A DNA stretch of 20,000 nucleotides from the sequence record SRR31156797_986, one strand, 5' to 3'. The notes under the pieces are model-generated. The model did not search any database and was not told where the DNA came from. It saw nothing but the letters and a program-made list of their open reading frames with translations. The translations under genes were made by a program, and so were the position numbers. Below are positions 3,025-18,355 of this stretch, one piece after another (position 1 is the first letter of the stretch; each line of letters opens with the position of its first letter).

Positions 3025-5538
3025 ATGAAAAACCTCGTTACCTCTCTCATCGCTGTATTCTTGTTTTCTCTTTCCTTTGCCCAAACCCAAAACATCAACC
3101 CCGATCCCAATGGCGATCCATGGATTGTTGGCGGCTTGCGTGAATTAACTCCCGAAGACTACCAGATGCTCTCCAAAGTGCCGCAGTGGGAACCGGAAAA
3201 TCCGGCCAACGCGGAAAACCTGCCACTTCAGGTTGACAACACCACCAACGTATGGTTCAGGCCTATCTTTTCGCAAAGTGGCGGATCGTGCGGACAGGCC
3301 AGTGGAGTAGGGTATAATTTCACCTATGAAATTGATTACGAAAGGCAGATTCCGGCCAATACTCCACAAAATCAATATCCAACCCATTACACCTGGAACT
3401 TCCTGAATGGTGGTGTAGGCAATGGCTCCTGGTATTTCGACGGATGGATGATCATTCGTGAGGGTGGTTGCCCAACGGTTTATGATTATGGCGGTATAGC
3501 TTACGGTGGTGAATCCCGCTGGATGAGCGGCTACGAATATTATTACAATGCCATGCACAACCGTACAGCCGGTTTTTGGGCCATCGACGTGAGCACGCAT
3601 GAAGGCCTCGAAACATTGAAGCAATGGCTCTATTCGCGTGATGGCGGCACACTGCCCGGCGGACTGGCCAACTTTGGCGCAGGCATTGGTGCGTCAACAC
3701 AGGGTTATCTACCATCAGGCACACACAATGCCGGCGACCCGGTAATCACCCAGTGGGGAACTACCTCAGACCACGCCATGACTTTTGTGGGTTACGACGA
3801 CGAAATTGTTTACGACTACAACAACGATGGCCAGTACACCGATGACATCGACATCAACAACGATGGTGTGGTTGACCTGCGCGACTGTGAAGTTGGCGGT
3901 TTGCTCATGGCCAACTCCTGGGGCCCTGGGTGGGGCATGTCAGGCAAAGCCTGGGTGATGTACAAACTCCTGGCTGATCCCATCGAGGAAGGCGGAATTT
4001 GGGCCAATGCGGTTCACCTTGTACAGGCCAAAGCCGAAGCCGAGCCGATACTCACCTTTAAAACGACGATCACCCACAGTTCAAGGAATAAAATCAAAAT
4101 CATGGCCGGTGTATCGTCAGATCCGGAATCAGCACAGCCTGAATATGTGAAGTCATTCCCCATGTTCAATTACCAGGGTGGAGATTTTTACATGCAGGGC
4201 GGATATTCGCAATCGGACAAAACCATCGAAATAGGCCTGGACATTACCGATCTTTTAACCTATGTGGAACCGGATGAAGAAGCCCGTTTCTTTTTACAAA
4301 TTGTAGAACAGGACCCATATGGCCAGGGCGAAGGTGAAATCGTGAGCCTGTCGTTGATGGACTATTCGGATGGAGCAGTTGAAGTTGAGAGCGCCATGCA
4401 GAATGTGACCATTGCCAACAGCGATACCACACTGATCTGGGTGAATAAAGCAGTGGATTTTGATAAAGTGGAAATCACCACCCAGGAACTGGAGGCCGGA
4501 GTGGCCGGTGAACCTTACAGCCAGCAACTTGAAGCTGCCAGCGGAACGCCACCATATAATTGGTCGTTAAAATTGGAATATACCGAAGAACAAATCACGG
4601 AAGCCTATCCGTCTATCGAGACAAACCAGCTTGAAACTACAAGCGATGATGATGGTTTTGGAGTTCTACCCCTGGATTTCGATTTCTTCTTTTATGGCGA
4701 AACCTACAACGAATTAACCGTGCTCACCGATGGTGCCATTACCTTCGACGGCAACTTCAGCTATATACGTGACGACGGCGCCATTTCAGGCAATAAATGT
4801 CTGGCAGCATATTGTTCTGATTTGATGATCTATCCTTCACAGGGTGACGGCATCTTTTACGAAGGTGACGAAAACTCGATGACCATCCGTTGGGTTACTT
4901 CCAAATATGATGAGCCTTCATTTGATGTGGATGTTGCCGCTAAGCTTTTCCCTGATGGTACCATTCAGTTTTTCTATGGTGATGATATCTCAACGTCACC
5001 GGATTGGGGCTCCGGAATTTCAGTGGGCGATGGGGATAATTTCCTGATCACCTCCATTTCAGGGGTTGTGAATCCACCATCGGATTTCGTGGCAACCATA
5101 CAGAGTACTCCGTTCCCGATCGGAATGGATATTACCACCGACGGAATTTTTCAGGGTACACCCCAGGAGATTGGCTGGATGTGGGATATTCCTTTTAAAG
5201 TTACGGATGATAACCGCATCTCGAATCTGAAAACGTTGTCGTTTTATACACTGCCAACCGGATTGCCCGAGCAGGGCGAAGAAGATGATTATGTTGCTGT
5301 TTCGCCCAATCCTTTTAAAAGCCATTTTGAATTGAAAACAACCAAAAACGGGATCTATCATTTCCGGCTTTTGGATATCACCGGGAAACTGGTAAGCGAT
5401 GTATTCAGCGGGCATATTTATGCTGGCCAAGGGTTTAAATGGGATGCTGCACATTACAGCCTGAAGCCGGGGGTGTATTTCCTGCATTGGAATTCAACCC
5501 ATGGTTCCGGGGTTCAGAAGATGATTCTGGCTGAATAG
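3025..5538 (+). CDS. T9SS-secreted papain-family (peptidase C1A-like) cysteine protease with Ig-like/accessory domains
   Basis: Signal peptide MKNLVTSLIAVFLFSLSFA. Putative oxyanion/catalytic QSGGSCG (Q84, C89), DHAMTFVGYDD (H250) and ANSWGPGWG (N297). C-terminal T9SS CTD (VSPNPF...PGVYFL...QKMILAE). Confidence 0.85.
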   Translation: MKNLVTSLIAVFLFSLSFAQTQNINPDPNGDPWIVGGLRELTPEDYQMLSKVPQWEPENPANAENLPLQVDNTTNVWFRPIFSQSGGSCGQASGVGYNFTYEIDYERQIPANTPQNQYPTHYTWNFLNGGVGNGSWYFDGWMIIREGGCPTVYDYGGIAYGGESRWMSGYEYYYNAMHNRTAGFWAIDVSTHEGLETLKQWLYSRDGGTLPGGLANFGAGIGASTQGYLPSGTHNAGDPVITQWGTTSDHAMTFVGYDDEIVYDYNNDGQYTDDIDINNDGVVDLRDCEVGGLLMANSWGPGWGMSGKAWVMYKLLADPIEEGGIWANAVHLVQAKAEAEPILTFKTTITHSSRNKIKIMAGVSSDPESAQPEYVKSFPMFNYQGGDFYMQGGYSQSDKTIEIGLDITDLLTYVEPDEEARFFLQIVEQDPYGQGEGEIVSLSLMDYSDGAVEVESAMQNVTIANSDTTLIWVNKAVDFDKVEITTQELEAGVAGEPYSQQLEAASGTPPYNWSLKLEYTEEQITEAYPSIETNQLETTSDDDGFGVLPLDFDFFFYGETYNELTVLTDGAITFDGNFSYIRDDGAISGNKCLAAYCSDLMIYPSQGDGIFYEGDENSMTIRWVTSKYDEPSFDVDVAAKLFPDGTIQFFYGDDISTSPDWGSGISVGDGDNFLITSISGVVNPPSDFVATIQSTPFPIGMDITTDGIFQGTPQEIGWMWDIPFKVTDDNRISNLKTLSFYTLPTGLPEQGEEDDYVAVSPNPFKSHFELKTTKNGIYHFRLLDITGKLVSDVFSGHIYAGQGFKWDAAHYSLKPGVYFLHWNSTHGSGVQKMILAE

Positions 5539-5565: not shown

Positions 5566-6828
5566 TTAAAGCTTTAGAATTTTCTTTGTGCAAACCCCTT
5601 TCGCAAATTTAATTCTGACCAGGTAAATACCCTTTTGATAAGTTGTCATATCCAGGCTGATTTGATCCCGGATATTGCCCTGGCTGAATAGGAGGGTTTG
5701 GTTGGTGTCGTAAATTTCGATATCGCAGAGTTCACTTGTAACTATGGTGGCTTTGTTTAACACCGGATTGGGGAAAATACGCACAAACTCTGTTTTACTT
5801 GTTTGCCCTGAAATTGCAGTATAAAGGCCTGTAGAATTCTTAAATATTAATTCTTTGCGATACCATAGTTTTTCTAAATCAGGTTTCCAGGCAGAAAGAT
5901 AGGCTGTACAATCATTAACGCATTGGAAATCTATAATACCTGCCACCATTTGGCTTTCCAGGTCTGCCTCAAGATCCCACGTATAGCCACCATCATTTGT
6001 ACGAAAAATTTGGAGTCCCCGGCTTGTAATGCCATTTTGGCTATTATAAAAACTGATTTTGGAAATATTATTAAGTTCTGAAGAAATTGAAGTCCAGGAT
6101 TCACCTGCATCCTCTGACTTGTAAATCAGATCATTATATGCGCAAATAAACATCAATGAATCTGAAATAATATCAAAGTCTGTAATCTTGTGGGTAGAAT
6201 CTACCAATACCGGTGACCAGTTTTGCCCGCCATCTGCAGTTCTGAATACCTTGCCCGGATACCCATTATTGTGGATGAATCCGATCTGTGTATTCAAAAA
6301 GTGCATTTTATCTTTTCCAATTGCCTGAGGAAGCGTGTCCACCAGTGTAACTTCTCCATTCGTAATCCTGTAAAACAGGTTGCCGTTCGAACCAAATCCT
6401 TTACTGCCGTTAACGAAACATAAATGTTTCGGCCCGTCACCTTCAGAAATGGTTTCCCACCCCTCCCCCCGAATCCATCTTGCAAAACGTATTGTAGCAG
6501 ACATATTCCAGGTAGCGTATCCGGTATCCGGACATGGAAAATCGGCATCATACAGTGGGCCAATTCCCCATCCACCCATTCCTAAAATGGCTTGCCAATT
6601 GGCGCCATCATCAATTGTTCTTCGTATTGTAAATTCAGGTTGACCGCTGGGACTTGGAGGTGAATAATTTGTTGTGTAAAAAATGATGCTGTCATCAAGA
6701 AAGTCTACATTTGCGTAAGGCTGATCCATATCAACAGTTCTGATTGTTCTGATTAATTCCCACTGGCCGTAGGTTTGGATGGAGAATAAGATAAGGGTTA
6801 AAAGGATAATGGATTTAACTGCCTTCAT
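5566..6828 (-). CDS. T9SS-secreted BNR/Asp-box (YCF48-like) beta-propeller protein
   Basis: Signal peptide MKAVKSIILLTLILFSIQTYG. Asp-box repeats RTIDDGANW, RTADGGQNW, KSEDAGESW and RTNDGGYTW. T9SS CTD IFPNPV...KGIYLVRI...TKKILKL. An alternative start is at 6837. Confidence 0.85.
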   Translation of the reverse strand: MKAVKSIILLTLILFSIQTYGQWELIRTIRTVDMDQPYANVDFLDDSIIFYTTNYSPPSPSGQPEFTIRRTIDDGANWQAILGMGGWGIGPLYDADFPCPDTGYATWNMSATIRFARWIRGEGWETISEGDGPKHLCFVNGSKGFGSNGNLFYRITNGEVTLVDTLPQAIGKDKMHFLNTQIGFIHNNGYPGKVFRTADGGQNWSPVLVDSTHKITDFDIISDSLMFICAYNDLIYKSEDAGESWTSISSELNNISKISFYNSQNGITSRGLQIFRTNDGGYTWDLEADLESQMVAGIIDFQCVNDCTAYLSAWKPDLEKLWYRKELIFKNSTGLYTAISGQTSKTEFVRIFPNPVLNKATIVTSELCDIEIYDTNQTLLFSQGNIRDQISLDMTTYQKGIYLVRIKFAKGVCTKKILKL

Positions 6829-6848
6829 GATTGTCATTTTTTTATATA

Positions 6849-6879
6849 CAAAACTAAGTAATCTTAGTCAGAAAGCAAA
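6849..6879 (-). promoter_or_regulatory. Bacteroidota housekeeping sigma promoter for the BNR protein gene
   Basis: The minus strand reads TTTG (6879-6876), a 19-nt spacer, then TAGTTTTG (6856-6849), matching the TTTG-N19-21-TAnnTTTG consensus. Confidence 0.7.
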
Positions 6880-7021
6880 CTACTTTTCGTTTTCCAGGGA
6901 ACTTGCTAATTACCTTTTACAACTCACCAATCACTTTATTTAATCTGCAGTTCCTTAATAGAAATCTTAGCGAGGCCTGGCTTGTCCGTAAAAAGGTAAA
7001 TGAGACTTAAAACAATTTTTA

Positions 7022-7029
7022 TAGCTTTG
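7022..7029 (+). promoter_or_regulatory. Bacteroidota -7 promoter element for the leader/RND operon
   Basis: TAGCTTTG matches TAnnTTTG and ends 15 nt before ATG 7045. The -33 position reads AATG, a weak match. Confidence 0.55.
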
Positions 7030-7044
7030 CAGGCTATTAAAATT

Positions 7045-7467
7045 ATGCCACAACGATTTCCCGAAATACTGATCAATGTTTTTATGGGGTTGGTCCTGCT
7101 GACGCACATGGTAGTTCCTCACCATCATCACAACGATACCATTTGTGTGATTGAAAGCCATTGCGATGTCACCAAAGATTCGGATGATCATACGAACCAC
7201 AAACATGATGGGCAGGAAGTTCAGTATTGTGCATTGAAAGATCCGGCGGTACTTAATTCAGGCAGAATAACTCCTCTGGTGAAGAACTTTACAATTTTTT
7301 CAAAATTCCACGGCCCGGAACATGATTTGGTTTTATTCTCCAGCAATATTTCACTTACAAATCTTTATAGCAACAATAACCCACCTGGAATATTACCCAC
7401 GCCGGTAATTCGGCATTCCCGGCCCTTATACGGTGCATCAGGGTTGCGTGCCCCTCCTGTTGTTTAG
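7045..7467 (+). CDS. His/Cys-rich leader protein (DUF6769-like) ending in a RAPP ribosome-arrest-type motif
   Basis: N-terminal hydrophobic segment (ILINVFMGLVLLTHMVV), then PHHHHNDTIC..SHC...DDHTNHKH...YC, then a low-complexity spacer and C-terminal GLRAPPVV*. Start 7045 is preferred over 7000 because the -7 promoter element lies between them. The DUF assignment is from recall. Confidence 0.75.
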   Translation: MPQRFPEILINVFMGLVLLTHMVVPHHHHNDTICVIESHCDVTKDSDDHTNHKHDGQEVQYCALKDPAVLNSGRITPLVKNFTIFSKFHGPEHDLVLFSSNISLTNLYSNNNPPGILPTPVIRHSRPLYGASGLRAPPVV

Positions 7468-7553
7468 TTTCCCGTTTTTTTTGCAATTCTTCAATAGCTC
7501 TGTCGATGGATGGATTGCATCATTTTTATCTTTTAATAGAAAACTAAACGATG
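7458..7553 (+). promoter_or_regulatory. Predicted mRNA structure linking the leader stop codon to the initiation region of the efflux adaptor gene
   Basis: TGTTGTTTAGTTT (7458-7470) pairs with AAACTAAACGATG (7541-7553): 9 consecutive Watson-Crick pairs plus 4 more, three of them G-U. Inner stem TGCAATTC (7482-7489)/GGATTGCA (7512-7519). Confidence 0.55.
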
Positions 7554-7560
7554 ATTTACA

Positions 7561-9114
7561 ATGAAAATCAACCTATTGTTTTATTTATTGCTGACTTTGA
7601 TATATGCAGGTTGTAGTCAGGAACATTCCAATGAAGCTAACCATAATCATGAATCCGGGGCTGATCATTCCGGCGAATCAGGACTCGACCATAAGGCAGA
7701 AGAAATTCCGAAAATACAATTTACGGAATATACTACACATTTCGAACTGTTTGCTGAGTCGGATGTGCTAATAGCAGGTGAACATGCACAAATCCTGGCG
7801 CATTTCACCAAGTTGCCGTCGTTTAAGCCACTCCGGAGTGGCCGGGTAACTGTAAGCCTCAACGTAAACGGAAAAGAAGCCTTGCAATCCCGGGAACAAC
7901 CTGTTCGGCCCGGTATATATCAGTTTGAGATCAAGCCTGATAATGCTGGCATAGGGAATCTTGTTTTTGAAATCGATGGACAGGAAAACAGCTTCAAAAT
8001 AGAGGTATCGGATGTCAGGGTATTTTCTAATCAACACCAAGCTATTGATGAAAATCCTGAACACAATCATGCTGAGTCCAATTCCATTGTTTTCACCAAG
8101 GAGCAATCCTGGAAGATCGATTTTGCCACTCAACCCGTTTCGGAAGGCCCTTTCAGTAATGTGATTAAAACTACCGCCATAGTGCAGCCGGCACCTGCCG
8201 GCCGTGTTTTAATTACAGCAAAAACCAGCGGTATCGTTTCACTTTCAAAGGGATTTATAGTACCCGGAACGGAAGTAGATGCGGGAGAAACCCTGTTCAC
8301 TATTTCAGGCAGCGGAATGGCCGATAACAACTTTGCTGTCAGGTTTACTGAGGTCCGCAACAATTATGAAACTGCTAAGCAAGAATATGAGCGAATGAAG
8401 GCGCTTGCAGAAGATAAAATCGTTACGGAATCACAACTGCTGGCAGCAAAAAATAAGTTTGAAAATGCCAATGTAAAATTTGAGAATCTACAGCAGCATT
8501 TCGATGCCTCGGGGCAAAAAGTATATAGCCCGGTTGCAGGAATGGTTGAAGACGTATTTGTCCATAACGGACAACATATCGAAAACGGAACACCTGTTTT
8601 AAGGATAATCGATGACGAGAACCTGATGCTTCGTGCAGATGTGAGCTCGAAATGCATGGATGTTCTTGGAACAGTAACATCTGGCAATATTCGCATATTG
8701 CCGGAAGGAAGGATTGTTACACTGGGTGATTTTTCAAATGGAAATTTCATTTTCGGGAAAGCCACCAACACCTCCAACTACCTGATTCCTGTGAGCATTA
8801 AGTTAAATTGGCAAACTGATTTGATACCCGGGCAGTTTGTTGAATTATACCTCAAGGCACAATCATCAGAATCAGTGATCACCGTTCCCAATTCATCACT
8901 GCTTGAAGAGCAGGGTAGTTTTTATGTTTTTGTCCAGATCACTCCGGAGTTGTTCGAAAAGCGGCTGGTGAAATCCGGTGCTACTGATGGCATGAAAACT
9001 GAAATTATCAGTGGCTTATCTGCTCACAACCGTATCGTAACCAGCGGTTCCATGCTTATAAAACTAGCCCAGACCACAGGAACACTCGATGCCCATTCGG
9101 GTCATGTTCACTAA
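7561..9114 (+). CDS. czcB: Heavy-metal RND efflux periplasmic adaptor (CzcB/CusB family), probable lipoprotein
   Basis: Lipobox-like LIYAGC, His-rich N-terminus (HSNEANHNHE..DH..DH) and C-terminus (AHSGHVH). Lipoyl/hairpin MFP motifs (ITAKTSGIV, SPVAGMVEDVFVHNGQ, LIPGQFV, VPNSSLLEEQG). The symbol is family-level only. Confidence 0.9.
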   Translation: MKINLLFYLLLTLIYAGCSQEHSNEANHNHESGADHSGESGLDHKAEEIPKIQFTEYTTHFELFAESDVLIAGEHAQILAHFTKLPSFKPLRSGRVTVSLNVNGKEALQSREQPVRPGIYQFEIKPDNAGIGNLVFEIDGQENSFKIEVSDVRVFSNQHQAIDENPEHNHAESNSIVFTKEQSWKIDFATQPVSEGPFSNVIKTTAIVQPAPAGRVLITAKTSGIVSLSKGFIVPGTEVDAGETLFTISGSGMADNNFAVRFTEVRNNYETAKQEYERMKALAEDKIVTESQLLAAKNKFENANVKFENLQQHFDASGQKVYSPVAGMVEDVFVHNGQHIENGTPVLRIIDDENLMLRADVSSKCMDVLGTVTSGNIRILPEGRIVTLGDFSNGNFIFGKATNTSNYLIPVSIKLNWQTDLIPGQFVELYLKAQSSESVITVPNSSLLEEQGSFYVFVQITPELFEKRLVKSGATDGMKTEIISGLSAHNRIVTSGSMLIKLAQTTGTLDAHSGHVH

Positions 9115-9126
9115 AATTGCCATACC

Positions 9127-12100
9127 ATGCTAAATAACATAATAAAATTTTCGCTCAATAACAAATACCTTGTACTGACAGTAACTGTTGTGCTCATTAT
9201 CGCGGGAATCCGAACAGCTGTAAATATGGATATCGATGTTTTTCCCGATCTGACAGCGCCCACAGTTGTGGTAATGACCGATGCCCACGGTATGGCCTCT
9301 GAAGAGGTGGAGCGCCTGGTTACCTATCCCATCGAAACAGCTGTGAACGGGGCTAATGATGTACGGCGTGTCCGTTCATCTTCATCTCAGGGATATTCAT
9401 TTGTGTGGGTGGAGTTCGACTGGGGTACCGACATATACAAAGCAAGGCAGATCGTCAGCGAAAAACTGATTACCGTTACGCCGCAGATGCCTCTGGGGGT
9501 TGATCAGCCCATTCTGGCACCACAATCCAGTGTAATGGGTGAGATATTTTTTATTGGATTACAGTCAGACAGTACCAGTATGATGGAGCTGAGAACCATC
9601 GCCGAATGGAATATTAAGCCTCTGATACTGGCCACAGGTGGTGTATCGCAGGTGACTATCATCGGGGGAGACCTTAAGCAGTACCAGGTACTGGCCAATC
9701 CCGCCCATATGAGATTTTACGATGTATCGCTTTCAGAACTGACCGAAATCTGTAAGGGAATCAGCACCAATTCATCCGGGAATGTGGTGCGACAATATGG
9801 CAACGAATATGTAGTAAGAGGTATTGGGCGAACCACCGATGTGGAAGCGTTGGGGAATTCATTCATCAAAGCAGTAAATGGTAAACCGGTAAGGTTGCGC
9901 GATGTTGCGGATGTCATCGTCGGCAGTGCTGTAAAGATGGGTTATGCATCAAAAAATGCAAGCCCGGCTATTATCATTTCCGTTTCGAAACAACCCAATA
10001 TCAACACGCTGGATGTAACCGAACAGATTGAAACCAACCTGTTGGAGCTGAAAAGATCACTTCCACCTGATGTGAAGCTGGATACCAATATTTTCAGGCA
10101 GGCCGATTTCATCGAAACATCGGTAACCAATGTTCAGAACGCGCTGATTGAAGGTGCGATTTTTATCACCATTATCCTGTTTATTTTTCTGGGCAGTTTT
10201 CGCATCACGCTGATTTCGTTAGTGGCCATCCCTGTTTCTTTGCTTTCGGCTATAATGGTTCTGAAGTTGCTGGGGCTGAACATAAATACGATGAGCCTTG
10301 GCGGTATGGCCATTGCCATCGGTTCGCTGGTTGATGATGCCATAATCGATGTGGAAAATGTGTACAGGAGGCTGCGTCAAAATCGACATCTTCCTCCAGG
10401 GGCTAAACAAACGGCTTTTACCGTGGTGTTTGAAGCTTCCAGGGAAATCAGAGCATCGATCTTAAATGCCACACTGATCATCATGGTTGCTTTTCTGCCT
10501 TTATTTTTCCTTTCGGGCATGGAGGGACGCATGCTCAAACCACTGGGGATTTCATTTATCGTTTCGCTGTTTGCCTCGTTGATTGTAGCCATGACTCTTA
10601 CTCCACTACTTTCGAAAATGTTGCTGACCAACAAAAATTATCTCGCTAAAAATGATAAAGATAAATGGCTGGTGAGCCATTTAACACGTATTTACGGCAT
10701 GTCGCTATCCTGGTCGCTTAAAAATAAATCCAAAATCATTTTACCCATAATCGGTTTATTTATCATTTCAATACTGGTATTTACATCACTGGGCCGAAGT
10801 TTTCTCCCGGAGTTTAACGAAGGTTCGCTAACGCTGTCGGTGGTTACTCAACCGGGTACATCGCTGGAAGAGAGCAGCCAACTGGGTAACCTGGTGGAAA
10901 CTGAGATGCTGATGATCCCGGAGATCAACAGTACTGCCCGGCGCACTGGCCGGGGAGAGTTGGATGAACATTCGCAAACCACGAATAGTGCCGAAATCGA
11001 TATGAACTTTACACTCAACAAACGAAGCCATAGGGCATTTTTAGCTGATGTACGTCAAACACTGGCAGGAATTCCCGGAATTGCTTTTACGGTGGGGCAA
11101 CCACTCGGGCACCGTATCGACCACATGCTTTCAGGAACGCGTGCAAATATTGCTATTAAGTTGTTTGGAACCAACCTCAACAACATGTTTATGCTAGGAA
11201 ACCAGATTAAAAGTGAGATCGTAGATATCGAAGGCCTTGTTGATGTGAATGTGGACCAGCAGGTTGAGATTCCGCAAGTTCAGATTCGTGCCAACCGCGA
11301 GATGCTTGCAAATTTTGGAATTACATTGGAGCGGTTTAACCATTTTGTGGATGTAGCATTTGCCGGCGAAAAGGTTTCGGATATTTATGAGGGCCAGAAA
11401 AGTTTCGATCTCGTTGTCAGACTCAATAAAGAATATACAGAATCTTTAGATGGTATACGGGCTGCGCTGATCACTACCGAAGATGGGAAACAGGTCCCGC
11501 TTGAACAGGTGGCTGACATTGTATCGGTGTCGGGCCCCAGCAGTATCAGCCGCGAGGACGTGCAACGGAAGATTGTGATTGCCGCTAACGTGGCCGGCCG
11601 TGACCTCAGGAGTGTTGTAAATAATATTCGCGAACGAGTTGAAGCAAATATCAACCTGCCTGAAGGTTACCGTATTGAATTTGGCGGGCAATTCAAAAGT
11701 GAGGCCCGGGCATCCCGCACGCTTCTGCTAACCTCCATCATGGCTATCATCATTATTTTTCTTTTGTTGTTTCAGGAGTTTAGAGATTTTAAACTGGCAG
11801 GCATCATTCTGCTCAATCTTCCTTTGGCCCTGATCGGAGGTGTGTTTTCTATCTATTTCACCTCCGGGATTTTAAGCATTCCCGCCATCATCGGTTTTAT
11901 TACCCTTTTCGGGATTGCAACACGTAACGGCATCCTGTTGATTTCAAATTACCAGAAGCTGCAAAGTCAGGGGGTTTCGCTGCACGAGACAGTGGTCAGA
12001 GGATCATCGGACCGGCTGAATGCTATCCTGATGACTGCACTTACGGCCGCCCTTGCACTTATTCCGCTGGCGATGCGCGGCGACTTGTCGGGAAATGAAA

Positions 12101-12222
12101 TACAAAGCCCCATGGCGAAAGTGATCCTGGGTGGTCTTTTAACATCAACATTGCTCAATATTTTCATTGTGCCTATCATTTACAACGAACTCATGTCAGG
12201 AAAAAAACCTAAATCAGCATGA
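9127..12222 (+). CDS. czcA: CzcA/CusA-family heavy-metal efflux RND permease
   Basis: 1031 aa. IDVFPDLTAPTV, EEVERLVTYPIE, TM4 AIGSLVDDAIIDVEN, FLPEFNEG, RLNAILMTALTAALALIPLA, EIQSPMAKVILGGL. The symbol is family-level only, and the metal is not established. Confidence 0.95.
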   Translation: MLNNIIKFSLNNKYLVLTVTVVLIIAGIRTAVNMDIDVFPDLTAPTVVVMTDAHGMASEEVERLVTYPIETAVNGANDVRRVRSSSSQGYSFVWVEFDWGTDIYKARQIVSEKLITVTPQMPLGVDQPILAPQSSVMGEIFFIGLQSDSTSMMELRTIAEWNIKPLILATGGVSQVTIIGGDLKQYQVLANPAHMRFYDVSLSELTEICKGISTNSSGNVVRQYGNEYVVRGIGRTTDVEALGNSFIKAVNGKPVRLRDVADVIVGSAVKMGYASKNASPAIIISVSKQPNINTLDVTEQIETNLLELKRSLPPDVKLDTNIFRQADFIETSVTNVQNALIEGAIFITIILFIFLGSFRITLISLVAIPVSLLSAIMVLKLLGLNINTMSLGGMAIAIGSLVDDAIIDVENVYRRLRQNRHLPPGAKQTAFTVVFEASREIRASILNATLIIMVAFLPLFFLSGMEGRMLKPLGISFIVSLFASLIVAMTLTPLLSKMLLTNKNYLAKNDKDKWLVSHLTRIYGMSLSWSLKNKSKIILPIIGLFIISILVFTSLGRSFLPEFNEGSLTLSVVTQPGTSLEESSQLGNLVETEMLMIPEINSTARRTGRGELDEHSQTTNSAEIDMNFTLNKRSHRAFLADVRQTLAGIPGIAFTVGQPLGHRIDHMLSGTRANIAIKLFGTNLNNMFMLGNQIKSEIVDIEGLVDVNVDQQVEIPQVQIRANREMLANFGITLERFNHFVDVAFAGEKVSDIYEGQKSFDLVVRLNKEYTESLDGIRAALITTEDGKQVPLEQVADIVSVSGPSSISREDVQRKIVIAANVAGRDLRSVVNNIRERVEANINLPEGYRIEFGGQFKSEARASRTLLLTSIMAIIIIFLLLFQEFRDFKLAGIILLNLPLALIGGVFSIYFTSGILSIPAIIGFITLFGIATRNGILLISNYQKLQSQGVSLHETVVRGSSDRLNAILMTALTAALALIPLAMRGDLSGNEIQSPMAKVILGGLLTSTLLNIFIVPIIYNELMSGKKPKSA

Positions 12223-13394
12223 AGAAAACTATCATCATATTCAGTATTGTAATCCTTGCCATATCAACAGAAGCACAAAGTAACCTCGATAGTATCGTGT
12301 CGGCGATTGAAGCTAATAATCCCATTTTATCTGCACTTCATAAAGAAATCGAGGCTGAGAAGCTCGGCAATAAAACAGGAATTTATCTTCAGAATCCGGA
12401 GGTGGAATTTCATTATTTATGGGGCAACCCTTCGGCCATTGGTAAGCGCGATGACCTCAGCATTACACAAGGTTTCGATTTTCCAACTGCTTATGGATAT
12501 CGAAACCAGATTTCGGATATTAAAAATCGACAAGCCGAGCTGGAATACCAAAAACAGCGACTGGATATTATGCTGGTGATACAGTTCCTGCTCATCGATT
12601 TGACACGATACAATGCCCTCATTGTGGAGCTGGAAAAGCGCCGGGACCATGCAGCCGAAATTGCAGAGGCCTACCGGTCGAAATATGACAATGGAGAAGC
12701 CAGTATAATCGAATATAACAAAGCCATGCTAAATTTACTCAATGCACGAACTGCGCTTGGGGCAGAGGAGGTAAAGCGTGAGGGGTTGGTTAAGGAGCTT
12801 GTGGGTTACAATGGAGGGAAGCCGGTTAATTACGATGGTACCCAATTCTACCATCAGCAAGTGCCTGAGGATTTTGAAAGATGGTTTTCTGAAGTAGCTC
12901 AAAAAAATCCCGTGTTGAACTGGCTTAACCAGGAGATTAACCGTAACCTGAAACAACAAAAGCTCAGCACAGCGCTGAGCCTTCCGAAATTTCACGCCGG
13001 ATACATGAGCGAGCAGACAGAAACCGATGGTTTCAGGGGCATAACTTTTGGACTGTCAATTCCACTGTGGGAAAATAAGAATACGGTTAAATACGCACAG
13101 GCAAGTGTTGATGCTGCGGCGGAAATGAAAGCCGGCCGTGAGATGCAATTTTATAATCGGTTGAAAGCTCTTCATACACAGGCAAAAGGATTGCAGGAAA
13201 ATGTAAACGATTTCAGGGAAAGTTTGGGTTTATACGACAATTCGGAATTGCTTAAAAAGGCTTTTGACAGAGGAGAGATTACGCTGATCGATTATATCAT
13301 GGAACTGACAATCTACTATGAGAGTGTGGACAGACTTCTTGGCCTGGAAAAAGAACTGGCCGTAACGCTTGTAAAACTTTACAAGTATATGTGA
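12219..13394 (+). CDS. czcC: TolC/CzcC-family outer-membrane efflux channel
   Basis: Signal peptide, AIEANNPIL, QNPEVEF, GITFGLSIPLW and FDRGEITLIDY motifs of outer-membrane efflux proteins. ATGA overlap with the RND stop suggests translational coupling. The symbol is family-level only. Confidence 0.88.
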   Translation: MKKTIIIFSIVILAISTEAQSNLDSIVSAIEANNPILSALHKEIEAEKLGNKTGIYLQNPEVEFHYLWGNPSAIGKRDDLSITQGFDFPTAYGYRNQISDIKNRQAELEYQKQRLDIMLVIQFLLIDLTRYNALIVELEKRRDHAAEIAEAYRSKYDNGEASIIEYNKAMLNLLNARTALGAEEVKREGLVKELVGYNGGKPVNYDGTQFYHQQVPEDFERWFSEVAQKNPVLNWLNQEINRNLKQQKLSTALSLPKFHAGYMSEQTETDGFRGITFGLSIPLWENKNTVKYAQASVDAAAEMKAGREMQFYNRLKALHTQAKGLQENVNDFRESLGLYDNSELLKKAFDRGEITLIDYIMELTIYYESVDRLLGLEKELAVTLVKLYKYM

Positions 13395-13626: not shown

Positions 13627-16600
13627 TTATTCCACACGCAATTCCCGGATGGAAAATCGTTTCATGCTGCTCCTCAATGGAAAATAAATCCATAGCAGTC
13701 CACTAATTACGATGGCCAGGATAAGTATGGTTACCAGGTTGGTGTTCATGGTGAAAGCCGGACTCAGGATTGAAGGCAATATGCCGATGAAAGCGGCCAG
13801 CATCCCGGTGATTATTCCAAATGCAAGTATCAGAATATTTTCCAGGAAAATGATTTTCAAAATCTGAGGTTTCCTGAATCCCAGCGCCAACATTACTGCC
13901 AGCTCACTTTTCCGTTCCAGCAGGTTTCGCAACAAAACAATACCCAGACCGATGGTTCCGATTAACACCCCCAGGCCTCCCAGGATCATAAAGACGGAGA
14001 GGTAGGTATTGGTAACCGAATTGAATGTGGCCAGTCGGGTGGTAGTTGGGGTAAGTTCGATACCTAAATCAGTGAGCCGTGTTTCCAATAGTACAGCAAC
14101 AGCATCTTTATTTTGCTCCGGAGCATCGATCAGCATAATCTGTGAACCTCCGGATGATGGAAAGTTTTCCCTGAAGATTTGCTCATCTATCAGGATGTTT
14201 CCCTGGAAAATGGAATTCTTTAAACCGGCTATTAGCAGCAATCTGATCTCCTTTCCCTGTTCGTTCAGATAGGTTAAGGTATCGCCTACCTTTTTCATCA
14301 ATCCCCATGTTATCACTGTCTGGTCTGCGATGGCCGGAATTACACCGTTGTCCATTTTGTTTCGGAGCGATAGCCAGGGTTGATCATCAGCAATCCAGTT
14401 GAGTTTATTGGCGATTGAGAATGAACCTTTTTGATCGAATGCAGCCGGATGGATGCCAAGTATCTGAGGCTGGTTTACCTGGTTCAGGTTCAGGCAACTG
14501 GCGTCGTCACCCAGGCGGGATAAAAACTGAACGAACTGCACACTGTCCAGCAAGGTCTCATCTTCCAAACCATATTTCAATTTTCCTTCACTGGTGTTCA
14601 GGTCATAAATCAGTGGAACGGATGTTTCTGCCCAAAAAGTGAAACCGCCGGTTCCGGAACTGTTTCTATTTGAAGCGCCGTAAAAAGTTTGTTGGTTTGC
14701 CCCGGTAATAACGATGGTAAATGTTCCCAAAGCAAGCAACGTGATGGTGGAAAGGTTGGCTCCCGGATTTTTGGAGATGTTTCGGAAAATCAGTTTTGTG
14801 GTGGTTAAATCAGGATGAAATTTTTGGCTTTGCTTTTGCAGAACCCGGTAAATGATAGCCAGGCAACCAATGATGAAAAGCCCACCTGCAGTAAGAAATA
14901 AGCTTGAGTTTTGGTTAACAGAATTAAAAATGGAATAAACTACCAGCAGGAATGTTGCGGATAAACTCACGAAAATCAAAATAGTATTGGCCAGCAATTT
15001 TTTCTGCTTTTGCCCTTTTTTCGCAACAGCCGTTTTCGAAAACGCATGATGGACAGGCTGCTTCATTTTTCTTCGTACGATAATCCATATGGCTGCCAAA
15101 GCGATTAAAATACCCGAAATTGCGCCAATTGCCAGCGTGGTTGGCTCGACATGGATCCAAAGCATGGTTTCACGCACCACATCCTGCCATACTGAGTTTA
15201 ACCCATGCATGATCCCGATGTTGTAGAGGATACCTGTAAAAGCACCGGCTATGGCTCCCAGGATAATCACCAGCAAGGCTTCTGAAATCCTGAAACGGAT
15301 GATTTGCTTTTTCGAAAAACCCAGGGCCGAGAGTATGGCACCTTCGTGGTTGCGTGCTGTAACATGCAACGAAAAAAGCAAGGCTGTAAGCAAAATGCCG
15401 GCGGCAATCACGAAGAAACTCAGGCTCAGGAACAGTTCGCCAAAATCAACGGCATTGGTCACGGCATTCAGGCCATCAGACCTGACCGTCCGGAACTGCA
15501 AACCAAAATCCATCGGCGTAAGCCTGCTTTTGATTTGTTGTTCCAGGGCCTCACTTGATAATCCAGGAACGCTGAACCTAAATGCAGTATAAGTACCAAA
15601 CGGATTTCCCCAGATTTCTGTTCCGGAATCAAGGTTGATAAATGCCTTTGGTGTTCCCCGATAATCATCCCAGTATTTTTCATCTTTGTCCCTGATCGCT
15701 TCAAGGTCAACAGGAACGCCGGCATCCCATTCGGAGCAGCTCCCGGCATTGGCCATACCCGGGAAGTCAGGCATCAACGAACGCATTATTTCAGAATCAT
15801 TTAAAGGGATAATGGATTTGACCACAAACTGTGTTTGGGTTTCTTCCAATTTTCTTAGCGGCCCGATAATAAAATATTTGAGCAACAGGGTGTCACCAAT
15901 TTCGGCCATCAAATCATTGGCCAGCCATGAATTGATGGTGATTTCGTTAGCCTGAAGCGATTCAGGAATTATAGGTGGATTTGCGGCAGATATAAAAGAA
16001 TAGGGGGTGATCCTGTCATTCAGTTTGATCTCATTCACCAGGTAAGTCAAAACAGGTTCTGATGATAGACTAATGCTTTCAACTGCATCAGCAACCACCG
16101 GCTCAATAAAAATCCGGTTGGAGGTTAGCTCCAATGTTTTTGTACCTTCAATTTTTGATACTTCTAAACCGGCATCCTGCAATTTCCAGCTATGGCAAAA
16201 GGCAGTATTGATCTCTCCAGCATTTAAGCCTTCCCGGTTTTCAATCAGGATCATGTTGGCCAGATTTTTCAGTTCCAGTTGCTCAGCCAAAAATCTTCCT
16301 GAAACAAAAATATTGTAAGGTGCCACCTGATTACTTTGCAGGCTGAAACGCCCAAGTTCATCTGTCCCGGCAATTGATATTACTTTCAGCCTGCTGGATT
16401 TTGAGGTGGTATTTTCCTGAGCAAAAGGCGCGTTTGCAGGGATAATTTCTGCCTGCTCCATCCTGATGATAAGATCGTCGCCAACCCGGAGCTGCAATTT
16501 TTCTGCAAGGTTTTCACTGATGATGGCTTCCCCATTTTGAGGAGTTTCGAGTTTTAGATTTGACAGGCTGATAAAATCCGCATCAATACCCAGAATCTGT

Positions 16601-16917
16601 GTTTGATTGTTACGCAGGCCTGAAGATGGATTGATGGCAATGCCGGAGTTTCTGAGGATTGCTGCGGTTTTGGAGTTGAGGGATTCTGCAAGGTCATTGG
16701 CAAGCTGCGATCTGACAAACCGGTCGCCGGTTTCCAGTGCATAGCCCGTATTTCCCAGGCGGAGGTCCACCATTTTTCGAAGGCTGTAATCTACTGAGTC
16801 GCCGGTGATAAGTGCTCCGGTAAGGATGGCTGTGCTTAACAGGATGCCTGCCAGCAATGCCAGGTGCTGCCTGCGATAATGTAAAATGCTTTTTATGATC
16901 AGATTGAAAAATGTCAT
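13627..16917 (-). CDS. ABC transporter permease with duplicated MacB-PCD/FtsX modules
   Basis: 1096 aa. N-terminal TM followed by a large periplasmic domain, then an FtsX motif (RNHEGAILSALGFSKKQI), a second periplasmic domain and a second FtsX motif (ERKSELAVMLALGFRKPQI). Confidence 0.9.
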   Translation of the reverse strand: MTFFNLIIKSILHYRRQHLALLAGILLSTAILTGALITGDSVDYSLRKMVDLRLGNTGYALETGDRFVRSQLANDLAESLNSKTAAILRNSGIAINPSSGLRNNQTQILGIDADFISLSNLKLETPQNGEAIISENLAEKLQLRVGDDLIIRMEQAEIIPANAPFAQENTTSKSSRLKVISIAGTDELGRFSLQSNQVAPYNIFVSGRFLAEQLELKNLANMILIENREGLNAGEINTAFCHSWKLQDAGLEVSKIEGTKTLELTSNRIFIEPVVADAVESISLSSEPVLTYLVNEIKLNDRITPYSFISAANPPIIPESLQANEITINSWLANDLMAEIGDTLLLKYFIIGPLRKLEETQTQFVVKSIIPLNDSEIMRSLMPDFPGMANAGSCSEWDAGVPVDLEAIRDKDEKYWDDYRGTPKAFINLDSGTEIWGNPFGTYTAFRFSVPGLSSEALEQQIKSRLTPMDFGLQFRTVRSDGLNAVTNAVDFGELFLSLSFFVIAAGILLTALLFSLHVTARNHEGAILSALGFSKKQIIRFRISEALLVIILGAIAGAFTGILYNIGIMHGLNSVWQDVVRETMLWIHVEPTTLAIGAISGILIALAAIWIIVRRKMKQPVHHAFSKTAVAKKGQKQKKLLANTILIFVSLSATFLLVVYSIFNSVNQNSSLFLTAGGLFIIGCLAIIYRVLQKQSQKFHPDLTTTKLIFRNISKNPGANLSTITLLALGTFTIVITGANQQTFYGASNRNSSGTGGFTFWAETSVPLIYDLNTSEGKLKYGLEDETLLDSVQFVQFLSRLGDDASCLNLNQVNQPQILGIHPAAFDQKGSFSIANKLNWIADDQPWLSLRNKMDNGVIPAIADQTVITWGLMKKVGDTLTYLNEQGKEIRLLLIAGLKNSIFQGNILIDEQIFRENFPSSGGSQIMLIDAPEQNKDAVAVLLETRLTDLGIELTPTTTRLATFNSVTNTYLSVFMILGGLGVLIGTIGLGIVLLRNLLERKSELAVMLALGFRKPQILKIIFLENILILAFGIITGMLAAFIGILPSILSPAFTMNTNLVTILILAIVISGLLWIYFPLRSSMKRFSIRELRVE

Positions 16918-16923
16918 TTTGAA

Positions 16924-17604
16924 TTACCCGTTTAATTTTCCGTTTTCAAGTGTATAGACTTTTTTCATCTGCCTGGCCAGTTTTTCGGCGTGGGTTACTA
17001 CAACCATCGAAACTTCTTTTTCTTCATTGATTTTCAGGAGTAACTCAGCCAGATCCTGTGCTGATTTCTGATCAAGGGATCCTGTGGGTTCATCGGCAAG
17101 GAGGATTTCCGGTTCGTTGATCAGCGCGCGTACGATGGCTGTGCGCTGGCACTCACCCACGGAAAGCTGTCCGGGTTTTTGTTTGGTCTTATCCTTAAGG
17201 CCTACAATATTAAGCAGTTCCATGGCCCGGTCGGGAGCGGTTTTTTTAAGGGTTTGGTCGTGGTGCGGAATCAAAGGGAGCAAAACACTTTCCAGTAATG
17301 TAAGTTGCGGAAGCAGGTGATGCATCTGGAAAACAAAACCTATATGCTGATTGCGGAGTTGAGAAAGTGCTTTGTCGTCCATTCCTGAGGTGTTGACTTC
17401 ACCGATCAAAACCTGGCCATTATCCGGTTTATCAAGCGTTCCGGTGATGTTGAGCAGCGTACTTTTTCCGGAACCCGAAGGCCCCACAACTCCCAGCATC
17501 TCGCCTTTATTGATGGTAAGTGAGATATCCTCAAGAACAGTTCTGTAATTTCCGGAGCCCGGTATCTGGTAGTGTTTTGATATATTTTGTAGTTGGATGA
17601 TCAT
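16924..17604 (-). CDS. ABC transporter ATP-binding protein (LolD/MacB type)
   Basis: Walker A GPSGSGKST, IGFVFQMHHLL, signature LSVGECQR, Walker B ILLADEPTGSLD, VVTH. It ends 6 bp before the permease start. Confidence 0.93.
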   Translation of the reverse strand: MIIQLQNISKHYQIPGSGNYRTVLEDISLTINKGEMLGVVGPSGSGKSTLLNITGTLDKPDNGQVLIGEVNTSGMDDKALSQLRNQHIGFVFQMHHLLPQLTLLESVLLPLIPHHDQTLKKTAPDRAMELLNIVGLKDKTKQKPGQLSVGECQRTAIVRALINEPEILLADEPTGSLDQKSAQDLAELLLKINEEKEVSMVVVTHAEKLARQMKKVYTLENGKLNG

Positions 17605-17776: not shown

Positions 17777-18355
17777 TTAAATTTCTTCAATAATATGGTC
17801 ACTGATCTTATTGATATCCAAAGGTTTTCGGTGGACATACTCAAAATTATCCCTGTCGTCGAAGCAAATTTTAAGAATTTCCCTGGTGTAAGGAGATACA
17901 TCATCTTTAAGGATTGAAATATATGAACTCCATTTAATGTTCCGAAAGTCATCTCTTGTGTGATGTAGCACTGGATTTTGATGTATGTAACAAAACATAT
18001 TGCGAAGATAGTTCAGATCATTTACGCATTTTCTTTTAACAGGTCTCATGAACAACGACCCCATCCGGTTTTCCTGTTTGTTGATGGCTTGTGCATATGA
18101 AATGCCAAACCTTCTGAATGATTCTGACACCTCTTTTGGCTTTGCCGTATGGTTTATATAAACCAGGAGATGGTAGTGGTTTTGCATAAGACAATAAGCC
18201 ATCAGCTCAAAAAAACTGCCGGGTCCTTTATTCAGCAGTCTGAGAAAATATTCATAGTTTGCTTCTCTGTGGAAGAGTTTGTCACTTCCGATAGCCCGGT
18301 TATAAACATGGTAATGGTAACCGGGTTCAAATGGTTCGGTATATTTTTGAGCCAT
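17777..18355 (-). CDS. rayT: REP-associated tyrosine transposase (RAYT; Y1 HUH, IS200/IS605 superfamily)
   Basis: YHYHVYNRA, AYCLMQNHYHLL (HUH), R.GSLF..P, YIHQNPV (catalytic Tyr) and KWSSY motifs. 192 aa, no tnpB, flanked by palindromic repeats. Confidence 0.9.
   Translation of the reverse strand: MAQKYTEPFEPGYHYHVYNRAIGSDKLFHREANYEYFLRLLNKGPGSFFELMAYCLMQNHYHLLVYINHTAKPKEVSESFRRFGISYAQAINKQENRMGSLFMRPVKRKCVNDLNYLRNMFCYIHQNPVLHHTRDDFRNIKWSSYISILKDDVSPYTREILKICFDDRDNFEYVHRKPLDINKISDHIIEEI

Follow-up and report, generated by a model that had tools for sequence, protein, structure and literature searches.

A DUF6769 leader peptide ending in Arg-Ala-Pro-Pro as a candidate metal-sensing arrest switch of a heavy-metal RND efflux operon in Bacteroidota

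The leader and the efflux operon behind it

The sequence analysed here is a stretch of 20,000 nucleotides (nt) from the record SRR31156797_986, referred to below as the window. Its subject is a small leader peptide that precedes a heavy-metal efflux pump of the resistance-nodulation-division (RND) type. Between 7022 and 13394 the plus strand carries, in this order, a TAnnTTTG element (7022-7029), the open reading frame (ORF) of the leader (7045-7467), a spacer of 93 nt, and the genes of a periplasmic adaptor (7561-9114), a permease (9127-12222), and an outer-membrane factor (12219-13394). Three flanking ORFs (3-893 and 3025-5538 on the plus strand, 5566-6837 on the minus strand) end in Por_Secre_tail, the C-terminal sorting domain of type IX secretion, and the host of the window is therefore assigned to the Bacteroidota. 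One of these three ORFs also contains CUB domains, and one contains BNR/Asp-box repeats.

The leader ORF starts at the ATG at 7045, ends with the TAG stop codon at 7465-7467, and encodes 140 residues. An in-frame ATG at 7000 would extend it to 155 residues; all four close homologues are 140 residues long, with a start that matches position 7045. The initial annotation described a signal- or membrane-like N-terminus, a His/Cys cluster, and the ending LRAPPVV directly before the stop codon, and the sequence reads in this way. A hydrophobic N-terminus is followed by PHHHH, Cys34, His39-Cys40, a DDHTNHKH stretch, Cys62, and the end GLRAPPVV-stop. The RAPP motif, Arg135-Ala136-Pro137-Pro138, is encoded at 7447-7458; it is the putative arrest site, and only two codons separate it from the stop codon.

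The permease scores 771.1 bits against TIGR00914 (cut-off 701.45), which places it among the heavy-metal RND efflux proteins of the CusA/CzcA family. It is about equally close to ZneA (3.7e-137) and CusA (3e-132). In a phmmer alignment to the CusA chain 3t51_A, the window residues at the three-methionine site, which we take to be M573, M623, and M672 of CusA, are S, S, and H by hand count. A CusA-type Cu(I) exporter was rejected on these three residues; Cu(I) or Ag(I) seems a less likely substrate than a divalent cation or Cu(II). The adaptor, a membrane fusion protein with a lipoprotein-type signal, matches TIGR01730 (102.8 bits, cut-off 94.9) and HlyD_D23, and its best solved relative is ZneB. 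Ahead of the part known from other adaptors it has an N-terminal extension of about 170 residues (7561-8100) with His-rich segments, and its C-terminal tail is also His-rich. The outer-membrane factor belongs to the OEP family (PF02321, 78 bits) and is conserved across loci as the third pump gene.

Conservation of the leader and of its genomic context

The leader matches the Pfam family DUF6769 (PF20558) with 30.2 bits, above the gathering score of 27, in an alignment that spans only residues 27-79 of the 155-residue reading. DUF6769 is a family of unknown function, and 108 of 109 aligned relatives match it. Leaders of the DUF2946 type had been named as analogues in the initial annotation. The analogies to CutF and CruR can be drawn from print, but the window leader itself is a DUF6769 protein. 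No match of the window protein to DUF2946 (PF11162) was found at E ≤ 0.1, and one of the 109 relatives matches that family (E 0.0056). The copper motif CXXC/CxxxC is not present in the window leader, where C34, C40, and C62 are spaced 5 and 21 residues apart and are accompanied by PHHHH.

A word-indexed search identified four close homologues among 33 candidates; they are 54-63% identical to the window leader, and the end SGLRAPPVV is invariant among them. With a profile, 417 matches at E ≤ 0.001 were obtained among 1.84 billion cluster representatives. The best 150 of these 417 matches, together with the close homologues, formed a set of 153 relatives. The R[AG]PP motif was found in 145 of the 153 (132 RAPP and 13 RGPP); RxPP lies exactly two residues before the stop codon in 141 relatives and three residues before it in 4. 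The relatives without the motif include two truncated entries, one KAPP, one RAPL, and one outlier of 784 residues. In the alignment of 109 sequences (32% mean column identity), from which outliers and rows without the motif had been excluded beforehand, H26, C62, R135, P137, and P138 are invariant.

The 65 distinct leader ends use all six Arg codons, and all four codons each for Ala, Pro, and Pro, at the motif; the amino acids are therefore what is conserved. This codon pattern indicates that selection on RAPP, a family trait, acts on the peptide. GTT encodes the last Val in 44 of 45 cases, compared with 38% in the downstream ORFs, a bias that points to a nucleotide-level constraint beside the peptide-level one. 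Neither RAPP nor RGPP occurs in the 524 other ORFs around the loci (227,169 residues). All xAPP words are rare in these flanking ORFs, and the absence therefore reflects a general rarity rather than an avoidance specific to Arg. A few leaders (L081, L077, and L035) have 5-6 residues after RAPP rather than two. Two decayed leaders were also seen: at L040:6394-6440 the frame closes immediately ahead of the RAPP codons, which then follow in another frame, and both the adaptor and the helix described below are kept; at L079:5848-6483 the leader is in two pieces, with no adaptor behind it.

Conservation within the leader is concentrated at the end of the N-terminal helix, PHHHH, C34, H39-C40, C62-x-L64, and GLRAPP, and is low in between. 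AlphaFold2, run with the alignment of 109 sequences, gave a confident model of one helix only, at residues 5-23 (7057-7113), with block values of the predicted local distance difference test (pLDDT) of 89 and 95 for residues 1-20. Outside the helix the pLDDT is 50-69 and no secondary structure is modelled; the ectodomain has no fold in the model, which thus gives no picture of a metal site. Hydropathy peaks at residues 8-24 (the top 17-residue window starts at residue 8), and Lys or Arg precedes the peak in the family consensus. A single N-terminal signal sequence or membrane anchor is thus predicted for the leader. The His/Cys cluster occupies codons 25-62 (7117-7230) and consists of P25-H26..H29, C34, H39-C40, a His-rich acidic stretch, and C62-x-L64; P25, H26-H29, C34, C62, and L64 are invariant or nearly so in the 109 sequences.

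The linker behind the cluster (codons 63-131, 7231-7437) has a column identity of mostly 10-40%, and its length is kept. The distance from the CxL motif to the Arg of RAPP has a median of 72 residues and lies within 69-73 residues in 112 of 129 relatives; from PHHHH to the same Arg it is 112 +/- 3.1 residues. A chain of some 70-odd residues is roughly long enough to span the ribosome tunnel and a translocon. A linker fixed at about 72 residues would therefore place the ligand cluster just at the periplasmic side when the ribosome stands on RAPP. A length that is kept without the sequence being kept fits a nascent-chain ruler better than a folded domain.

The genomic context was surveyed in one genome per prokaryotic species, with a scan seeded by an alignment of an 8-sequence subset. 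The scan gave 480 pattern matches, of which 101 were confirmed as relatives and 80 were kept. The record labels are nearly all Bacteroidota (Prolixibacteraceae, Bacteroidales, Paludibacter, Saprospiraceae, Bacteroidaceae, Maribellus, and Carboxylicivirga); the exceptions are one metagenome-assembled genome labelled Proteobacteria and one labelled KSB1. Five of the 80 loci stop at a contig edge. Downstream DNA is available at the other 75, and at 72 of them the leader is followed on its own strand by a homologue of the window adaptor as the next ORF, and then by the permease and the outer-membrane factor. The permeases at the loci are 57-85% identical to the window permease, mostly 70-80%. The three exceptions are L072, with a 104-residue ORF in between, L078, where the adaptor is lost, and L079, with its decayed and split leader. 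The spacer between leader and adaptor is mostly 85-107 nt long. Longer spacers (123-276 nt) at L029, L060, and L077 contain extra GC-rich hairpins or repeats and are apparently insertions. A separate metagenome scan with the alignment of close homologues found one distant locus only, L081, and no close relatives of the version with the TAG stop codon.

The TAnnTTTG element of the window lies 15 nt before the leader ATG and was read from the sequence as a candidate -7 promoter element, TAnnTTTG being presumably the Bacteroidota consensus. Such an element occurs within 70 nt upstream of the leader ATG at 49 of 70 distinct loci, compared with 6 of 70 control windows from coding DNA. Its position just upstream of the leader ATG suggests therefore that the leader heads the transcription unit. 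One sigma-70-like promoter match was found inside the spacer, fewer than in shuffled sequences, and was disregarded. Among the nearest upstream genes of the loci, no conserved neighbour or regulator was found: the 73 proteins contain 99 Pfam families, the commonest of which occurs in 4 proteins, and histidine kinases occur in 2.

Two further observations concern neighbouring genes. Four loci (L014, L015, L041, and L062) have an extra ORF of 117-121 residues between adaptor and permease, about 1650 nt past the leader stop codon, which is unrelated to the window genes by BLASTP. In the window, a 1096-residue FtsX/MacB-type permease and an ABC ATPase are encoded at 13627-17604 on the opposite strand, converging on the end of the pump operon; further on, a 192-residue ORF (17777-18355, minus strand) has a weak match to the IS200-like Y1 transposases (21.3 bits, below the cut-off of 23).

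A helix between the leader stop codon and the adaptor start

The minimum-free-energy fold of the window joins 7459-7470 to 7541-7552. The initial annotation had proposed a pairing of 13 bp with the region from -20 to -8 of the adaptor ATG at 7561; 12 bp of it form in the fold, and the thirteenth, a U-G pair between 7458 and 7553, is only possible. With this pair included, the helix (P1) has a 5' arm at 7458-7470, which contains the end of the Pro138 codon, the two Val codons, the TAG stop codon, and 3 nt beyond, and a 3' arm at 7541-7553. The window helix is AU-rich, with two G-C pairs, and the rest are A-U or G-U pairs. A stable internal hairpin (P2), predicted at 7482-7519 in the window, was present with differing sequence in the P1 folds that were inspected, of which no count was made. 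The interior of the spacer does not align across loci. No Rfam family matched the region 6900-7700 at E ≤ 1.

The helix recurs at other loci with a different sequence: the stretch before the adaptor ATG pairs with the end of the leader, from its last codon through the stop codon to about 8 nt beyond. For the analysis, 50 distinct spacers (78-110 nt) were aligned with MAFFT, plainly and without fitting, and a helix of 15 pairs was written by hand. Standard pairs fill 80.2% of the 728 cells of P1, compared with 33-53% (maximum 52.9%) when the partner is slid by 1-3 columns. Changes on both sides were found at 13 of the 15 pairs. The covariation score is 0.288, compared with 0.073-0.095 for the slid partners, and was reached by none of 500 shuffles. 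The pair just past the stop codon, for example, is A-U (20), G-U (8), U-A (8), or G-C (6). The window represents a compensated variant: TAG replaces the TAA stop codon found at most loci, and the partner, U at most loci, is C. Two Bacteroidaceae loci (L071 and L076) with TGA stop codons form helices of 11 and 13 bp of unrelated sequence. In the distant locus L081 (765-915) a different helix is found, which again includes the region of the stop codon. In 36 of the 39 rows carrying the helix, P1 ends 9-11 nt before the adaptor ATG. The comparative checks that the initial annotation had suggested, namely a conserved terminal R[AG]PP, a position upstream of metal transport genes, and a covarying stem that joins the stop codon to the initiation site, all thus came out in its favour.

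At 45 of 71 distinct loci, the stop region and the 40 nt ahead of the predicted adaptor start form a duplex of -8 kcal/mol or lower, compared with 8 of 71 for a reversed arm; the mean energies are -9.4 kcal/mol for the real pair, -5.0 kcal/mol for the reversed arm, and -4.6 kcal/mol for a shuffled target. P1 is present in the minimum-free-energy fold of 44 of the 56 loci with spacers of up to 130 nt, and in 91 of 560 shuffles. Chance complementarity was rejected on the covariation, the duplex energies, and the fold frequencies relative to these controls. An inverted repeat acting at the DNA level as an operator is unlikely, since its half-sites would be about 70-80 bp apart and G-U exceeds A-C by 36:19.

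A candidate arrest switch and its alternatives

RAPP and RGPP are described as motifs at which ribosomes arrest while the two Pro codons occupy the P and A sites; they stand at the C-termini of small exported proteins, some of which are encoded upstream of metal genes (PMC12992588). In CruR, RAPP is reported to be required for the copper response (PMC9426467), and arrest at the Pro-Pro codons is reported in vitro (PMC12992588). CutF is reported to stall on periplasmic copper, melting a stem-loop that masks the next gene's ribosome-binding site (PMC9973294; bioRxiv 10.1101/2025.02.05.636593). Initiation in Flavobacterium, according to PMC6847099, is tuned by mRNA structure and upstream adenines, and not by a Shine-Dalgarno sequence.

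The present locus resembles CutF of Rhodobacter capsulatus (DUF2946, cutFOG) in several respects. Both have a small exported protein at the head of a metal-detoxification operon, a periplasm-exposed metal-ligand motif, a C-terminal proline stalling motif, and a stem-loop between leader and next gene that shields the initiation site; in CutF it is melted by the stalled ribosome. CutF-like proteins are reported beside OEP, ACR_tran, and HlyD_D23 genes, and 19% of list D in that survey comes from Bacteroidota (PMC9973294). However, the window leader belongs to DUF6769, its ligands are PHHHH and three Cys residues without CxxxC, its motif is RAPP rather than a PPP repeat, the target is the adaptor of an RND pump, the host lacks Shine-Dalgarno recognition, and the helix contains the stop codon. 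With CruR (Bp2923 of Bordetella pertussis, DUF2946) it shares the C-terminal RAPP, which in CruR is needed for regulation, the sensing of metal by the nascent chain, which is proposed here, the position at the head of a metal operon, and a long spacer to the next gene (PMC9426467). CruR differs in that it controls an uptake system, copper relieves its arrest, its ligand is CXXC, and its output is Rho-dependent termination instead of occlusion of an initiation site. CruR homologues are reported in PMC9426467 from Proteobacteria and a few other phyla, and not from Bacteroidota.

Further relatives in design are ApdA, ApdP, ApcA, the 'RQH family', and SecM (RAGP). In these peptides a signal for localisation sits at the N-terminus and an R-A/G-P-P core close to the C-terminus; they are encoded ahead of the gene that is regulated, and the initiation site downstream is covered by a stem-loop, which in their case the arrested ribosome disrupts, as described in PMC10987492, PMC10951233, and PMC12992588. 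In contrast, they monitor Sec or YidC activity and precede secA, secDF, or yidC, whereas the window leader has a conserved metal-ligand cluster and precedes a metal pump. The conserved core, the predicted anchor, the same-strand position upstream, and the structured initiation region are those of a RAPP-type arrest peptide, with the arrest itself putative; from its position, an arrested ribosome could reach P1.

The best reading by analogy would be an arrest-peptide switch that resembles CutF and CruR, is built from another protein family, and is adapted to initiation without a Shine-Dalgarno sequence. We give a probability of about two in three (0.68) to the claim that the leader acts as a regulatory arrest peptide, sensing extracytoplasmic metal and setting the translation of the efflux pump behind it. 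A single message from the promoter just upstream would carry leader, adaptor, RND pump, and outer-membrane factor. The leader helix (residues 5-23, with positive charges ahead) would insert into the inner membrane, with the PHHHH/Cys cluster (25-62) facing the periplasm. The linker, variable in sequence and fixed at about 72 residues, would span translocon and tunnel, so that the cluster would be just out when the ribosome is at Arg-Ala-Pro-Pro. As with other RAPP peptides, peptide-bond formation would stall at this point, the P site being occupied by Pro137 and the A site by Pro138, and the stop codon, 12 nt ahead of the stall, would be at the entrance of the mRNA channel. In the free message, the initiation region, which has no Shine-Dalgarno sequence, would be covered by P1 in its upstream half. 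An arrested ribosome would enter P1 with its leading edge over the first 4-7 pairs, including the G-C pair at the helix foot, and the adaptor start would stay accessible. The initial annotation had the stalled ribosome cover the 5' arm; by this geometry, only the first 4-7 nt would be reached and not the whole arm. The occupancy of the His/Cys cluster by metal would set the duration of the arrest. The preferred polarity resembles that of CutF, in which metal would prolong the arrest and the pump would be made; given that the switch is real, the odds for this polarity are about even. The anatomy behind the mechanism was observed, and its steps from membrane insertion onward are inferred.

Several points weigh against this proposal. 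The window fold alone is no better than that of shuffled sequences (z -0.85; 30 of 200 shuffles fold as well), and the pairing is taken as more than chance because RAPP and the helix are conserved and the helix covaries across dozens of loci. RNAalifold gave an empty structure on the same 50-sequence alignment. P1 had been derived by eye from the same sequences, which favours it in the slid control. It is not in the minimum-free-energy fold of 12 of the 56 loci, and 11 of the 50 alignment rows form 10 or fewer of the 15 pairs, 7 of these 8 or fewer. The excess of G-U over A-C is only mild, 44:35 in all rows and 36:19 in the 41 helix rows, which were selected on their Watson-Crick pairs alone. 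The start codon and the 8-11 nt directly ahead of it are not paired in P1. In partition-function folding, where the ribosome was represented by blocked bases, the mean unpaired probability of the region -26 to +3 is 0.44 in the free message, 0.54-0.56 with a ribosome at RAPP, and 0.58 with a ribosome at the stop codon; the modelled opening agrees with the proposal in direction but is modest in size. The arrest, the binding of metal, and the regulation are inferred from sequence. An efflux pump needs metal for its ON state, whereas in CruR metal relieves the arrest; either polarity may therefore apply.

The same parts might accordingly work with the polarity of CruR. Arrest would then be the default, and the His/Cys cluster, folded on metal at the translocon exit, would pull and release it; each released ribosome would reach the stop codon, unwind P1, and permit one adaptor initiation, so that pump synthesis would follow the rate of release. 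Copper is reported to relieve the RAPP arrest in CruR (PMC9426467), and the fixed 72-residue ruler puts the cluster where its folding could exert force. The stop codon lies inside P1, at a fixed distance of two codons from RAPP; a terminating ribosome would therefore open the whole helix and an arrested one 4-7 pairs, and the modelled accessibility is indeed highest with the ribosome at the stop codon (0.58). Yet most of the modelled opening is already reached with the ribosome arrested (0.54-0.56), and an arrested ribosome would stay far longer than a terminating one. Moreover, the arrested state is the ON state in all of the characterised stem-loop cases considered here, namely SecM and uDF_RQH (both in PMC10987492) and CutF. 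This polarity is regarded as unlikely. Control might also be transcriptional, with P1 secondary: an arrested ribosome would block Rho loading, as CruR works via Rho-dependent termination (PMC9426467), or P2 (7482-7519 in the window) and the U-rich stretch that follows it would form an attenuator. A terminator scan of 6700-7700 found no site. The base composition of the spacers (A 32%, C 17%, G 14%, T 38%) is poor in C, unlike that of Rho loading sites. Since this account also leaves unexplained the covariation of P1 and its fixed distance of 9-11 nt from the start codon, we hold it to be very improbable.

A different possibility is a pump component that is finished and functional as a small membrane protein: the DUF6769 product might be a periplasmic metal chaperone, for example, or a regulator resembling CzcI. 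P1 would then only couple the adaptor to leader translation for stoichiometry, and RAPP would be a structural or slow C-terminus with no regulated arrest. The conserved His/Cys cluster and the membrane anchor suit a metal-handling protein, small proteins of the CzcI type are reported to precede czcCBA without a proline motif (PMC9973294), and a stop codon in a helix beside a downstream start is a classic layout of translational coupling. Against a finished protein, the model is unstructured apart from the helix (pLDDT 50-69), and conservation peaks at GLRAPP, while the linker of 69 residues keeps its length and not its sequence. In addition, RAPP and RGPP are described as strongly excluded from proteomes and enriched at the C-termini of arresting small exported proteins (PMC12992588), and both are absent from the 227,169 flanking residues. 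The account of a finished protein thus appears improbable.

The type of mechanism is already known; what is new is DUF6769, the His4/Cys ligands, the RND efflux operon, and the Shine-Dalgarno-blind Bacteroidota. No published description of a DUF6769 arrest switch was found, and the survey papers on CutF and RAPP were the only relevant ones returned; the supplementary lists of PMC9973294 and PMC12992588, which were not covered, may include DUF6769. The family is mentioned, to judge from the title and the opening of the abstract, in a paper on effectors of the Salmonella type VI secretion system. Copper-related RAPP/RGPP upstream ORFs are said in PMC12992588 to be absent from Bacteroidota, and the word 'efflux' does not occur in that paper. 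A broader claim would be that a Bacteroidota-wide, purely translational metal switch works here without Shine-Dalgarno pairing, that a nascent, membrane-anchored His4/Cys peptide reads metal in the periplasm by way of the fixed 72-residue ruler, that a ribosome parked on RAPP gates a covarying helix which holds the leader's own stop codon, and that the leader is the sole dedicated regulator of a highly conserved heavy-metal efflux RND pump. This claim is tentative, and the odds are somewhat against it.

Metal-sensing arrest peptides are so far represented by two experimentally studied proteobacterial cases, CutF and CruR, both of which are DUF2946 proteins and related to copper. The locus gives a concrete and testable function to DUF6769, with its 417 cluster representatives at E ≤ 0.001. 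It would extend the principle to heavy-metal RND efflux, to a His-rich ligand set, and to a phylum that ignores Shine-Dalgarno sequences, in which little is known about the translational switching of individual operons. The comparative data are clean, with a near-invariant GLRAPPxx-stop, a linker kept in length, and a covarying helix; they can guide the design of mutants, and cultured carriers exist. Such a switch would explain how the pump is induced without a conserved upstream two-component or MerR-type regulator.

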